Of a stretch of DNA of 64,000 nucleotides, positions 52,094 to 57,127 are shown piece after piece. A program made the position numbers and the translations under genes. The stretch is taken from contig CAWBMF010000003.1 of NCBI GenBank assembly GCA_963789835.1, positions 441,068 to 505,067 of the forward strand, given 5' to 3'. The number at the start of each line of letters is the position of its first letter. Position 1 is the stretch's first letter. The notes below the pieces were generated by a model. That model worked only from the letters and a program-made list of their open reading frames with translations. It did not search any database and was not told the origin of the DNA. Source of the stretch: an uncultured delta proteobacterium (GTDB taxonomy: Bacteria > Desulfobacterota > Binatia > Binatales > Binataceae).

Positions 52094-52996
52094 ATGAGAG
52101 ATTTTCGCGACAAGGGCCGCAAGCCGCGCTTCAATCGCAACGCGCCGAATCCCCCGCGCCGCAATTCGCCCGCGATACAGCCGGCGCCCCGGCCCGCGCC
52201 GACACCGGTGCGTGAGTATCAACGCGCCGACGCGGACCCGCGCGAGCCGCGCCGCGCGAGCGGCAACGATCGCGAAATAGTTTACGGCGTCGAGCCAATC
52301 CGCGAGCTGGTCGCCGCCGCCCCCGCCTCGATTCGGGTGCTCTACGTGAAATCGGGCGACGAGCGGCGCTTCACCGCTGAAATCGATCTCGTCAGAACCG
52401 GCGGCGGCCGGGTCGAGTTCGCCGACGACGCCGGCCTCGAGCGGCTGGCGGGACCGGCGGCTCGGCACCAGGGGATTGCAGCCCTGATGCGCGAGTACGA
52501 GTACACGCCGCTCGAGGATATCCTCGCCGCGCAGCCCGACCCGATCGTGCTGGTGGACGGTGTCACCGATCCGCGGAACCTGGGCGCACTGATGCGTTCG
52601 GCCGAAGGCGCCGGCGTCGGCGCGATCGTTCTCGCCAAGGACCGCACGGCAGGCATCACGCCCGCGGCGGTCAAGTCGTCGGCCGGTGCGTGGATACATC
52701 TGAAGATCGCGCGATGCGGCAACGTGGCGCGCACGATCGAGCAGCTCAAGCAGGCGGGTTACTGGACGGCGGCGCTCGCGCCCGGCGGCGACACGTCGAT
52801 CTACACGCTCGACACCTCGCGCAAGCTCGCGATCATCGTCGGCTCAGAGGGGCGCGGCGTTCGCGACATCGTCAGGAAGGGCGCCGACTTCGTCGTCGAC
52901 ATCCCGATGCGCGGCAAAGTCGGCTCGCTCAACGTATCGGTCGCCGCCGCGGTGGCGCTATTCGAAATCGCCCGCCGCCGAGCCGCCGCGAAGTAG
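52094..52996 (+). CDS. rlmB: 23S rRNA (guanosine-2'-O)-methyltransferase RlmB (SpoU/TrmH family) with basic N-terminal extension
   Basis: VLVDGVTDPRNLGALMRSAEGAGV...IIVGSEGRGV...GSLNVSVAAAVALFE. Confidence 0.8.
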   Translation: MRDFRDKGRKPRFNRNAPNPPRRNSPAIQPAPRPAPTPVREYQRADADPREPRRASGNDREIVYGVEPIRELVAAAPASIRVLYVKSGDERRFTAEIDLVRTGGGRVEFADDAGLERLAGPAARHQGIAALMREYEYTPLEDILAAQPDPIVLVDGVTDPRNLGALMRSAEGAGVGAIVLAKDRTAGITPAAVKSSAGAWIHLKIARCGNVARTIEQLKQAGYWTAALAPGGDTSIYTLDTSRKLAIIVGSEGRGVRDIVRKGADFVVDIPMRGKVGSLNVSVAAAVALFEIARRRAAAK

Positions 52997-53144: not shown

Positions 53145-53633
53145 ATGATTCAAATTCTCACGATAATCCGCGACAAGGAACAGGATCTCGAACTCGCAGG
53201 GATTGCTGCTACCGCAGTTTGCGGCGCCGGCCTTACGCAGCCCTTCCCCGACGGCTCCCCATCGCGAGGCGATGTGGCCGACGGAGGCTCGCTCGAAGTT
53301 CAGTGCGATCCGGCGATCGCGCCGCGCGTCAGGGCAGGATTCGTTGCGGCCGGATTCGACACGATCGAGCGAGTCGCTGATCCGGTGATTCCGCCGAAGA
53401 CGAAGATCGTGACGATCGCAGTTGGCCCGGAGAATCAGGAGTATCTCCAGATGGCTGATCCGGCCGCCGACGCGCTTTGCGGTGCGGGACTTACCGTCGC
53501 TTACCCGGACGGCAGATCATACTCGGGCGATCTGTCGACCGATGCGACCGTGAACGTGCAATGCGATCAAATCGACGCCGCCGCCGTCCAGCAGGGGTTC
53601 GGCGCAGTATGGCAAATGCTCCAGTCCGGCTAG
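53145..53633 (+). CDS. hypothetical cytoplasmic protein with two tandem ~70-aa Cys-containing repeats
   Basis: RBS gaaggag 8 nt upstream of the ATG. Repeats AxxAxCGAGLTxxxPDGSxxxGDxxxxxxxxVQCD...A. Confidence 0.4.
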   Translation: MIQILTIIRDKEQDLELAGIAATAVCGAGLTQPFPDGSPSRGDVADGGSLEVQCDPAIAPRVRAGFVAAGFDTIERVADPVIPPKTKIVTIAVGPENQEYLQMADPAADALCGAGLTVAYPDGRSYSGDLSTDATVNVQCDQIDAAAVQQGFGAVWQMLQSG

Positions 53634-53645
53634 ACGGAGAACTGC

Positions 53646-53870
53646 GTGGAATTCCTGGTTGTTAATTTCGATGATGATGGTCGTGGAGTGATAGTCAATT
53701 CCGCGCCCGGCGCATGGACCACGAACCAGATTTTGATGCTCGAAGCGGGTACGTACTACATCGAGCTCGCGCCACCAGCGGATTTCACGCCGCTGCAAAT
53801 CCCAATCCAATTAGTCGATACGTCGGTGGACAATCCGTATCAACTCTATTTCACCAAGACTGCCTCATGA
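53646..53870 (+). CDS. hypothetical small protein (74 aa)
   Basis: Sits between the repeat protein and the patatin gene. ATGA overlap with the patatin start. Confidence 0.35.
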   Translation: MEFLVVNFDDDGRGVIVNSAPGAWTTNQILMLEAGTYYIELAPPADFTPLQIPIQLVDTSVDNPYQLYFTKTAS

Positions 53871-55364
53871 CCGCGGCGAAGCGCTGGCGCGCCGGCTTCG
53901 TGCTCTATCTGTCGATAGCTGCGATTTCGTGCGCGACCGCGACTACGAAGTTGCGCACCGATCAGCTTCCGACCGCGGGCGGCGACGGCCAGGGCTACCG
54001 GTTCGAAAACCTCGCAGGTGGCAAGCAAGACAAGCAACTCTTCGTATGCCTCGCGTTCTCGGGTGGCGGCACTCGCGCCGCCGCGCTCGCTTACGGAGCG
54101 ATGCTGGCGTTGCGTCAAACGCACATCGACTGGCCGCAGAAGGGCGGGACGCTGCTCAACGAGGTCGACTGCATCTCGTCGGTGTCCGGCGGCTCGTTCC
54201 CCGCCGCCTACTATGCGCTCTACCACGACCGCATCTTCGACGACTTTGAGAGCCGGTTCCTGTATCGCAACATCGAGGGTCGCCTTATTCTCGAGGCGCT
54301 TGCCCCGTGGAATTGGCCCTGGCTCTGCGTCTCCATATTACAGCCGAATCGATCTGGCGGCGGACATGTATGACGACGAGCTGTTCGATCATGCGAGCTA
54401 CGATCAATTGATAAGTCAGAAGCGTCGTCCGTTCGTGATTCTCAACGCTACGAACATCGGCTCTGGCAATCGATTCCCGTTCACGCAGGATCAGTTCGAC
54501 CTGATCGGATCCGATCTCGGCCCTTACCCCGTTGCGCGCGCAGTCGCCGCGTCTTCTGCGTTTCCGTTCCTGCTCAGTCCCATAACGCTGGAGAACTATC
54601 AGCCGCTGCAGGGGTTTCCGGTGTTGACCGAATATCAAACCGGGCTGCAGGACTACTACAACGATCGCAGCCGCTACTACTGGTCTCAGAGCCAGCTGGA
54701 CTACGTCGATCAGCCGCACCCGTATGTTCATCTGATGGACGGCGGACTCGCCGACAACATTGGACTGCGATCGATCATCAACGCCTACGAACAAAGCAAC
54801 GGCTTCATCGCGCGCAACATTCCCGACATCGATCGCCTGGTGGTGATCGCCGTCAATGCGCGCACGCAGTCGACCGACACGATCAGCAACAGCCATCACA
54901 CGCCGCACATAATCCCCACGGTCGCGATGGCGACGGCGACGATCGCGATGGACAACTACAGCTTCGATACGGTCGATTTCACCAACGAGTTGGCGAACGA
55001 ACTGAAGCAAGCCGAGGAGGTGAGCGCCAAATCGGGAGGAAAACTGAAATTACACGCGCCCGTGCCGTACGTGATTGAGCTGAGCTTCGAGGCGATCCCC
55101 GATGCGAAAACCCGCCAGCAGTTCTACGGTATCGGCACCAACTTCGACCTGCCAGCCGACCAGGTCAAAGCGCTAATCAACATGGGATGCGTTCTGCTCA
55201 AGAACGATCCCGTCTTCCGATGCATGCTGGCCGATATCGAAAACGAGGCCGCCGGCCACCCTGATGCAGCTTCGGCTTGCAACGGCGGATCGACGACTGC
55301 CGATCCGGTCGCCGCGCGGCAAATCAGTTGTCCTGACCCCGGTCTCTGGCCGGGCAACTCCTAA
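53867..55364 (+). pseudogene. patatin-like phospholipase, reading frame interrupted by a -1 frameshift near 54305-54320
   Basis: Frame A (53867..54373) carries the signal/TM region, the GGGxR oxyanion motif (FSGGGTRAAALAYG) and the GxSxG motif (SSVSGGSFP). Frame B (to 55364) carries the catalytic Asp motif MDGGLADNIG. Junction is around ...EALAPWNW / PGSASPYYSRIDLAADMY. Confidence 0.5.
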
Positions 55365-55724
55365 GCCCGGCGCGCCGAGCGCGATTTGCTCTTCGCGGTT
55401 TTCTTTCTCGCACTTTTGGCGCGCGGTCGACTTGCCGTCGTTGAATCCCGGATATTTCCGCTCGAGCGCTTTTTTGATCGTGTTCATCCAGCTGGATTCG
55501 TACTGGCTCGCGATTTTTCTCATCCCGCCAACCTGCTGACTGGCCTCTTTCATCTGCGCCTTCAACAGCAGCGCGCCCTTGACCAGGTGCGGATGCATTG
55601 CGTGCGCGTTGAGGTCCGACAGCGTTTTGCCGATCAGCTTCAGCTCTTCTCTGATCCGGTCCGCATAAACTCTGGCCCATTCGAGATCCATCAGGGTGCT
55701 ACTGTTCGGCTTCGCTTTCGGCAT
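55173..55724 (-). CDS. hypothetical Lys-rich protein (3' portion overlaps patatin gene end; extent uncertain)
   Basis: MPKAKPNSSTLMDLEWARVYADRIREELKLIGKTLSDLNAHAMHPHLVKGALLLKAQMKE... looks protein-like. The last ~60 codons overlap the convergent patatin CDS and look like shadow translation. Confidence 0.3.
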   Translation of the reverse strand: MPKAKPNSSTLMDLEWARVYADRIREELKLIGKTLSDLNAHAMHPHLVKGALLLKAQMKEASQQVGGMRKIASQYESSWMNTIKKALERKYPGFNDGKSTARQKCEKENREEQIALGAPGLGVARPETGVRTTDLPRGDRIGSRRSAVASRSCIRVAGGLVFDIGQHASEDGIVLEQNASHVD

Positions 55725-56363: not shown

Positions 56364-56435
56364 GCCGATGTAGCTCAACGGTAGAGCACCTGATTTGTAA
56401 TCAGGTGGTTGCGAGTTCGATTCTCGCCATCGGCT
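56364..56435 (+). tRNA. tRNA-Thr (anticodon TGT)
   Basis: GCCGATGTAGCTCAACGGTAGAGCACCTGATTTGTAATCAGGTGGTTGCGAGTTCGATTCTCGCCATCGGCT. Cloverleaf with loop TTTGTAA. Confidence 0.75.
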
Positions 56436-56459
56436 TGGTCGGCATTTTTGCCTTCGGAG

Positions 56460-56545
56460 GGAGAGGTTCCCGAGTGGACAAAGGGAGCAGACTGTAAATC
56501 TGCCGGCTTATGCCTTCGAAGGTTCGAATCCTTCCCTCTCCACCA
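56460..56545 (+). tRNA. tRNA-Tyr (anticodon GTA), long variable arm, CCA encoded
   Basis: GGAGAGGTTCCCGAGTGGACAAAGGGAGCAGACTGTAAATCTGC...GGTTCGAATCCTTCCCTCTCCACCA. Near-identical core to E. coli tRNA-Tyr. Confidence 0.8.
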
Positions 56546-56571
56546 GTATGATATTTGGATCGACGGGAAGA

Positions 56572-56647
56572 GCGGGAGTAGCTCAGTTGGTAGAGCGCGA
56601 GCCTTCCAAGCTCGGGGTCGCGGGTTCGAGTCCCGTCTCCCGCTCCA
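56572..56647 (+). tRNA. tRNA-Gly (anticodon TCC)
   Basis: GCGGGAGTAGCTCAGTTGGTAGAGCGCGAGCCTTCCAAGCTCGGGGTCGCGGGTTCGAGTCCCGTCTCCCGCTCCA. Confidence 0.8.
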
Positions 56648-56727
56648 GAGTTTTCGCGATGACTAGAGGCAGCGAGTTTTGCGAGGCGTTTTTTACTGAG
56701 AGATTCCGGTTGAGCGGCGCATCGGAG

Positions 56728-56803
<76 letters not shown>

Positions 56804-56853
56804 AGTTTTGAGCGCCGGCTGAGCGGCGCAGGAATTTTTTCGAGGCTATTACA

Positions 56854-57009
56854 ATGAGAGATCTGATTTCACTTTCGTGCGACACCTGCAAGTCGCGCAA
56901 CTACACGACCAGCAAGAACAAGAAGACGCAGACCGACAAATTTTCGATCAAGAAATTCTGTCCGCGATGCCGCTCGCATACCGTGCACAAAGAAGGGAAA
57001 ATTACCTGA
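56854..57009 (+). CDS. rpmG: 50S ribosomal protein L33
   Basis: [51 protein letters not shown]: 51 aa with a C4 zinc ribbon. Below the 60-aa cutoff of the ORF track. Confidence 0.8.
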
Positions 57010-57050
57010 TCATTGTATATGCGGTGCGCAACACGCTTGCCTGAACAGAC

Positions 57051-57127
57051 GGGTCAGTAGCTCCAATTGGCAGAGCATCGGACTCCAAATCCGAGGGTTC
57101 CAGGTTCGACCCCTGGCTGGCCCGCCA
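57051..57127 (+). tRNA. tRNA-Trp (anticodon CCA)
   Basis: GGGTCAGTAGCTCCAATTGGCAGAGCATCGGACTCCAAATCCGAGGGTTCCAGGTTCGACCCCTGGCTGGCCCGCCA. Confidence 0.8.

Follow-up and report, generated by a model that had tools for sequence, protein, structure and literature searches.

We examined a locus of three consecutive genes, here called g1, g2 and the patatin gene, in a 64,000-nucleotide stretch of DNA (the window) from an uncultured delta proteobacterium of the Binataceae (assembly GCA_963789835.1, contig CAWBMF010000003.1, positions 441,068 to 505,067, forward strand), and found that it is probably composite, with a conserved module of two genes, g2 and a patatin-like phospholipase gene, lying downstream of an unrelated Binatia gene, g1, and with a frameshift in the patatin gene that is most probably an assembly error. 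Patatin-like phospholipases are well known, and how membrane-active lipases are safely made and exported is understood for few systems (Lif foldases, ExoU-SpcU and Tle-Tli). The locus had been noticed earlier in a reading made from the letters of the DNA (the sequence-only reading), which described a three-gene operon and raised the idea of a toxin or defence effector; its observations turned out to be largely correct and its interpretation half right.

All three genes lie on the forward strand of the window, which comes from a soil-dwelling member of the Candidatus Binatus group and has a G+C content of 58.8%. The first, g1 (53145-53633), encodes a cytoplasmic protein of 162 amino acids; g2 (53646-53870) starts with GTG, is preceded at 5-6 nt by GGAGA, and encodes 74 amino acids without a signal peptide; and the patatin gene is read in two parts, a 5' part (53867-54325, residues 1-153) and a 3' part (54327-55364, residues 154-498), which flank a single frame-breaking extra base at 54326. 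The three open reading frames (ORFs), the size of the middle product and the ATGA overlap, in which the patatin ATG at 53867 sits on the g2 TGA, were all as first described, whereas the gap between g1 and g2, given earlier as 13 nt, measures 12 nt. No terminator-like site was found between g1, g2 and the patatin gene.

The evidence for a g2-patatin module came from comparison with relatives, whose contigs and loci are designated below by L-numbers. We fetched 80 metagenome loci with patatin homologs (42-96% identity), searched their six-frame translations with a hidden Markov model (HMM) of g2, and counted linkage in the 66 loci having at least 260 nt of upstream DNA. In an initial count, 62 of these 66 had a g2-like ORF immediately before the patatin gene and on its strand, and inspection of the four apparent misses revealed an in-frame fusion in two (L029 and L030), an ORF overlapping the patatin start in the third (L042) and a patatin without g2 in the last (L031), so that the corrected count is 65 of 66. 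The sequence-only reading had proposed looking for the partner genes next to patatin genes elsewhere, and for g2 this linkage is borne out strongly. A word-indexed protein search with g2 returned just 14 close relatives, badly understating the size of the family in comparison with the HMM. The coupling of the two genes is also tight, with the nearest candidate patatin start falling between -17 and +36 nt from the g2 stop in 66 of 70 loci, and with overlaps of the ATGA, GTGA or TGATG type in 22. The pair was found as well in a metagenome-assembled genome (MAG) of Methylomirabilota (L109) and, without g1, in two Binatia contigs (L021 and L022) with quite different neighbourhoods, and comparison of neighbourhoods around the pair revealed no other recurrent gene families. 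Together, g2 and the patatin gene are best read as a self-contained, widely conserved bicistronic module, present in dozens of uncultured lineages.

As to the nature of g2, its family members are 68-83 amino acids long and share a conserved N-terminus, MEYLxVxF; since the open frame begins one codon before this start in several loci, there is no room for a signal peptide. Two longer variants (L093, 293-601, and L096, 398-796) carry an internal insertion of ~25 residues right after the MEYL N-terminal strand, and measure ~95 rather than ~70 amino acids. The Pfam PEGA profile (PF08308) was matched by 28 of 48 g2 members at E <= 0.1 (best E = 1.2e-6); among the first ten scanned, two passed the gathering score of 20.8 bits, with 21.7 and 24.0. 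The window's own g2, scanned alone against Pfam, gave no PEGA match, scans of g2 against NCBIfam and PADLOC gave no useful match, and a search of the PDB with the g2 profile found nothing. On the strength of the family matches, which cover most of the profile length, g2 is probably a divergent PEGA domain, a predicted beta-sandwich, that lacks a signal peptide; it differs from other PEGA domains in standing alone as a protein of ~70 amino acids, in its conserved MEYLxVxF start and in being tied genetically to a patatin. PEGA is known only as a domain of cell-surface proteins (PMC2447325), and we found no description of a PEGA-patatin pairing, or of a partner for lipoprotein patatins, in the literature searched or in Pfam, NCBIfam and PADLOC. 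We regard the conserved partner as a modestly novel feature, and in annotation a small ORF starting with MEYL upstream of a lipoprotein patatin should be taken as a real gene.

The patatin, by contrast with its partner, has a predicted export signal. Its N-terminus, MTAAKRWRAGFVLYLSIAAIS-C22, is built like that of a lipoprotein, with a positive n-region, a hydrophobic h-region and a lipobox (...SIAAIS-C22). In an alignment of 14 patatin homologs (48-98% identity), Cys22 (53930-53932) is nearly invariant and closes a segment resembling a signal peptide, and across the metagenome loci a lipobox of the form ...[AG][GS]C is near-universal, followed by AHY in most members from outside Binatia. Because of this near-universal lipobox the protein is predicted to be a lipoprotein of the Sec/signal peptidase II (SPase II) pathway, which narrows the earlier description of a secreted protein with an N-terminal signal or anchor: the signal stands, and 'secreted' gives way to a lipoprotein. 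A consistent twin-arginine (Tat) motif, sought across the patatin N-termini as a possible explanation for a cytoplasmic partner, was not found. The relation of the signal to g2 can be seen in the two fused loci, L029 (3731-5485) and L030 (same coordinates), which are independent metagenome contigs: here g2 lacks a stop, and its frame runs on through the signal peptide and lipobox of the patatin to give a protein of 585 amino acids; the order of its parts, PEGA, signal and patatin, would leave the PEGA domain on the cytoplasmic side of the anchor.

The two pieces of the window's patatin cover complementary halves of the Pfam Patatin profile (PF01734), the 5' piece matching profile positions 1-69 (E = 5.1e-7, 30.5 bits) and the 3' piece positions 101-188 (E = 2.4e-5, 25.1 bits), and the L001 orthologue, which is intact, reaches 62.1 bits where the cut-off is 27.7. 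In the 14-sequence alignment, the oxyanion motif GGGTR (54062-54076) has invariant G66, G67, G68 and T69; the nucleophile S107 (54185-54187) lies in S-V-S-G-G-S, with S107, G108, G109 and S110 invariant; and the catalytic D291 (54738-54740) lies in MDGGLADN, with D291, G292 and G293 invariant. The sequence-only reading had listed a complete set of GGGxR, GxSxG and DGG motifs; the first and last are there as described, and the serine motif reads SVSGG, a variant of G-x-S-x-G in which the first Gly is replaced by Ser, like the SGGS of cPLA2. By profile and motifs the protein is an ordinary member of the known Patatin/cPLA2-type family, and its relatives are many: more than 6,500 proteins reach E <= 1e-10, and their source databases name them 'NTE family protein' or 'RssA'. 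With other PF01734 patatins (plant Pat17, CapV and human cPLA2 GIVD) it shares GGGxR, a nucleophilic Ser in G/S-x-S-x-G and an Asp in DGG, and it differs from them in its N-terminal lipobox, its length of 470-505 amino acids across the family, the conserved helical C-terminal half, the Binatia-specific Cys-containing tail (both in the 3' part) and the small PEGA-like gene upstream. A sequence search of the PDB with the patatin gave no match, and beyond Pfam Patatin the scans of NCBIfam and PADLOC with it returned nothing useful. An AlphaFold2 (AF2) model built from the 14 sequences was poor (predicted local distance difference test, pLDDT, 61) and was used solely for the fold class, for which the top Foldseek matches were CapV, plant patatin and cPLA2 GIVD (E ~1e-3).

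The third gene, g1, has a different history. Its product is an internal duplication (42% identity over 59 amino acids, pairwise E = 9e-16) of two repeats, encoded at ~53151-53369 and ~53400-53624, and the pattern CGAGLT...PDG...GD...VQCD occurs in both halves, as had been noticed from the letters. Its cysteines are conserved in part: the closer members all have C54, C112 and C140 and vary at C26, and in the most distant members the last Cys alone is invariant. Scans against Pfam, NCBIfam and PADLOC gave no match, in agreement with the earlier failure to place it in a family. The nearest relatives are proteins of Candidatus Binatus or Binataceae MAGs (91-99% identity), and the family, which forms 133 clusters at 90% identity, is restricted to Binatia; among 1.84 billion proteins it has 36 representatives, one of them a spurious repeat protein. 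The AF2 model of g1 is confident (pLDDT 92.9) and consists of two consecutive ferredoxin-like domains, for which fold searches returned generic ferredoxin-like or ACT-like similarity only. This arrangement, two beta-alpha-beta-beta-alpha(-beta) domains of ~75 amino acids each, recalls tandem ACT or ferredoxin-like regulators such as the aspartokinase regulatory subunit, and the overall size is like that of tandem-ACT subunits (~155 amino acids); there was no significant structural or sequence match of g1 to ACT domains. The g1 family is a clean orphan confined to one lineage, and its fold is predicted with confidence.

Several Binatus genomes (L001-L005) have the three genes in the order g1-g2-patatin, and in one of them, L001, g1 and g2 are 108 nt apart. 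In another relative, L017, rlmB and g1 are followed within ~10 nt by the gene that converges on the patatin gene in the window, and g2-patatin is cleanly absent. Copies of g1 also occur in unrelated contexts (L013, L018 and L006-L011). Since g1 is found without g2-patatin, and g2-patatin without g1 (in L021, L022 and ~80 metagenome loci), the locus consists of two evolutionary units, and g1 is, judged by its distribution, a Binatia-only orphan that is not evolutionarily tied to the pair. The three-gene operon of the sequence-only reading accordingly keeps its common strand and tight spacing and loses its unity, and the expected linkage to patatin genes, so strong for g2, fails for g1.

Several observations were made around g1 homologs. 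The slot between g1 and the convergent gene is empty in L017 (8020-8870), is filled by g2-patatin in the window and L001-L005, and in L015 (8710-12237) holds a multi-pass membrane protein of 1175 amino acids without a Pfam match, a 32%-identical homolog of which is encoded near g1 in L018 (2671-6246), both proteins being ~1180 amino acids long. In the Binatus MAG L013 (9064-10902) an 88%-identical g1 homolog lies away from rlmB, beside an IS3-type transposase pair that seems to interrupt a glucan-phosphorylase-like ORF. Distant g1 homologs in L007/L008 (1-5983) and L006 (1-5605) lie downstream of gene sets resembling conflict systems, which include an AAA_16/TPR NTPase of the STAND (signal transduction ATPases with numerous domains) type of more than 1000 amino acids, proteins of 146, 432, 241 and 892 amino acids without a family match, a faint Dyp-peroxidase-like protein, a DUF900 hydrolase and, immediately before g1, a protein of 80 amino acids. 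For the most distant g1 relatives the contigs were too short for their contexts to inform.

We turn now to the break in the patatin gene. The frame breaks after codon 153, and deletion of one base at 54325/54326 restores an open protein of 498 amino acids. The sequence-only reading had placed a -1 shift near 54305-54320; the frame is indeed broken, through a +1 insertion in the DNA just downstream, where the window reads GGCTCTGCG and relatives read GGCT-TGCG or GGCTC-GCG, giving the protein W-L-A-S-P-Y-Y across the site (C54325 and T54326 fit the alignment equally well as the inserted base). The extra base is missing from three close relatives, L005 and L020 (ENA contigs) and L026 (a JGI metagenome contig). 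At exactly this site some relatives have CTT and others the synonymous CTC, where the window has CTCT, a pattern that marks a consensus error at a position varying among strains. Alleles of 498 amino acids (proteins P0168-P0173) that are intact and as long as the repaired window protein exist at 95-98% identity, and in comparison with intact relatives the repaired patatin has a ratio of nonsynonymous to synonymous substitution rates (dN/dS) of 0.07-0.11 over the whole gene and of 0.06-0.09 past the break. Sibling assemblies, some of which at least are Nanopore-only, carry private frameshifts in conserved genes: rlmB lies in four frames in L015, g1 and a VWA gene are frame-broken in L020, and g2 and the patatin gene are frame-broken in L005. 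Four related genomes bear MFD isolate names, and the long-read MAGs of Microflora Danica are Nanopore-only assemblies polished with Medaka (PMC12313526).

A rival explanation is that the patatin is a genuine, recently inactivated pseudogene, with the module standing at the first step of a decay that is already visible in relatives. The module is dispensable and has been lost within the clade, L017 and L015 lacking it and L014 carrying an internal deletion or inversion; the insertion lies outside any homopolymer; and only one or two coding indels were found across the ~12 kb comparable with relatives, meaning that the assembly is not grossly error-ridden. Because the module has truly been lost or degraded in some Binatus genomes, a real and very recent frameshift retains some probability, although we consider it rather unlikely: the window alone has the extra base, which falls on a C/T synonymous polymorphism, a pattern typical of consensus errors in strain mixtures, the gene has no second lesion and a dN/dS of 0.06-0.09 past the break, intact alleles are found at 98% identity, and the sibling assemblies show comparable breaks in genes as conserved as rlmB. 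The frameshift is most probably, then, a consensus error of metagenomic assembly and not an inactivating mutation; roughly weighed, an artefact is likely and a pseudogene the lesser chance. Of the two possibilities left by the sequence-only reading, inactivation or sequencing error, the second is the better supported, and single-base frameshifts in long-read MAGs should not be called pseudogenes without read support. In the Binatus MAG L014 (8837-9833), patatin residues 10-67 are followed by an inverted piece, 67-92, and then by 254-504, which may reflect real decay or misassembly. An extra G near 55425 likewise breaks the frame of the convergent gene in the window (GCGCGCGGTCGAC versus GCGCGC-GTCGAC in L005); this G is common to the window and L020 and missing from L005 and L026, and being shared with L020 it is either a real shared variant or a systematic basecalling error at the motif.

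These findings suggest how the module might work. The g2-patatin pair would have entered the variable slot that separates g1 from the convergent gene, downstream of a g1 that is probably there by chance, an unrelated Binatia protein with two predicted ferredoxin-like (ACT-like) domains. Immediately upstream of a putative serine-aspartate phospholipase of the patatin/cPLA2 type, the pair would encode a small PEGA-like protein, g2, predicted to be cytoplasmic. Since it bears a Sec/SPase II lipoprotein signal, the patatin should be held by a lipid anchor at the periplasmic face of the envelope, probably at the outer membrane; patatin-like proteins have been detected in outer-membrane fractions of Myxococcus (PMC3222651). 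From there the anchored enzyme, whose activity is predicted, could hydrolyse phospholipids or lysophospholipids for turnover or scavenging of envelope lipids, and g2 would most likely act on or with the patatin before or during export, as a holdase, an inhibitor or an expression-coupling factor. A near-invariant PEGA-like partner across distantly related uncultured lineages points to an accessory function that is as yet uncharacterised. More tentatively, and with less than even confidence, we propose that a large clade of lipoprotein patatins, from uncultured lineages of soil and sediment (Binatia and Methylomirabilota in the present data), has in g2 a dedicated cytoplasmic partner that had gone unrecognised and that might serve as a pre-export holdase, an inhibitor or a subunit controlling production of a dangerous membrane-active enzyme; if so, g2 would represent a new class of accessory proteins for exported bacterial phospholipases.

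Several points weigh against this account. The main one, which it leaves unexplained, is the mismatch of compartments between a signal-less g2 and an exported lipoprotein: g2 is predicted to stay in the cytoplasm and the mature patatin to reach the periplasm, so that it is difficult to see how the two finished proteins could form a stable complex. PEGA domains, moreover, normally lie outside the cytoplasm. One locus, L031, has a patatin without g2, and g2 is absent beside the patatin relatives (32-38% identity) of cultured Proteobacteria and of plasmids, which shows that g2 is not essential to the patatin fold and that the partnership marks a clade, not the whole patatin family. To these are added the poor structure model of the patatin and the loss of the module from some Binatus lineages (absent in L017 and L015, rearranged internally in L014).

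Two other functional readings were weighed against a self-contained module. One would make g1, g2 and the patatin a single functional system in which g1 is a regulatory or ligand-sensing subunit for lipolytic effectors. The common strand, the 12-nt gap between g1 and g2 with no terminator-like site, and the recurrence of the gene order in several Binatus genomes are all in keeping with this, as is the fact that g1 homologs elsewhere adjoin hydrolases of the lipid or ester type, namely an Abhydrolase_3 protein (L009/L010), a DUF900 protein (L007/L008), a PF04185 phosphoesterase (L018) and a protein without a Pfam match in which a GDS...DxxH motif was noticed by eye (L006). These neighbours, however, come from unrelated families in mixed orientations and represent 5 of ~10 contexts, an anecdotal count, so that lipid or ester hydrolases near g1 homologs are a hint and not a demonstrated association; g1 could still be a tandem-domain, ligand-binding regulator that tends to adjoin lipolytic enzymes. 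As regards a single system, the clean absence of g2-patatin beside g1 at the same site in L017, the pair without g1 in L021, L022, L109 and ~80 metagenome loci, the 108-nt gap in L001 and the restriction of g1 to Binatia, when the pair spans other lineages including Methylomirabilota, make it improbable.

The other reading follows the suggestion of the sequence-only reading and regards the pair as a toxin-immunity or anti-phage defence system, in which the patatin, as the effector, would destroy membranes and g2 would inhibit it or confer immunity. Patatin effectors do serve in the cyclic-oligonucleotide-based anti-phage signalling system (CBASS), as CapV, and as toxins of type III secretion systems (T3SS), as ExoU with its small adjacent chaperone SpcU; here too the two genes are tightly coupled, and CapV is among the best structural matches. 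That match, however, comes from a low-confidence model at E ~1e-3 and indicates a shared fold only, PADLOC models match none of the three proteins, and the variable neighbourhoods hold no conserved cyclase, sensor, secretion-system or mobile-element genes, with no CD-NTase, type VI secretion system (T6SS) or STAND genes at the window locus. A Sec lipoprotein signal is, furthermore, at odds with both cytoplasmic activation of the CBASS kind and delivery by a T3SS or T6SS, and immunity against a periplasmic lipase would need a signal peptide, which g2 lacks. A toxin or defence role is, in our view, very improbable. Specific candidates of this kind were rejected: a CBASS with a CapV-type effector, given no PADLOC match, no cyclase in any context examined and an effector with an export signal, and a Tle-Tli pair of a T6SS or an ExoU-SpcU pair of a T3SS, given no secretion-system genes nearby and a g2 that is PEGA-like and without a signal peptide. 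The likeness to these pairs is nonetheless instructive. In ExoU-SpcU of Pseudomonas aeruginosa a patatin-fold phospholipase likewise stands beside a small dedicated partner, which acts in the cytoplasm of the producer before export, whereas SpcU belongs to the class I chaperones of T3SS, does not have a PEGA fold and is encoded downstream, and ExoU depends on host ubiquitin and bears no lipoprotein signal; T3SS genes are absent from the window locus, and the structural match of the patatin to ExoU is insignificant (E = 0.13-0.27). In Tle-Tli pairs, similarly, the lipolytic enzyme works in the periplasm and has a small gene next to its own, whereas Tle enzymes are alpha/beta-hydrolases or phospholipases D delivered by a T6SS and Tli proteins are periplasmic and have signal peptides, unlike the Sec-lipoprotein enzyme and signal-less partner found here.

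Upstream of g1, the window encodes RlmB (52094-52996, forward strand; Pfam match SpoU_methylase). Downstream of the patatin gene lies the convergent gene (55361-55724, reverse strand), a flanking gene outside the module that was delineated by tblastn and by comparison of translations with L001 and L005; it encodes a lysine-rich protein of ~120 amino acids, and its TAG overlaps the patatin TAA. Past this gene come five tRNAs interleaved with rpmG, and then secE and nusG; the tRNAs are the only Rfam elements found in the window, where cis-regulatory RNAs were sought and not found. In many bacteria tuf is located between such a tRNA cluster and tRNA-Trp; at 56364-57127 of the window there is no tuf, and the order runs from a tRNA-Thr/Tyr/Gly/Thr cluster through rpmG and tRNA-Trp to secE-nusG.

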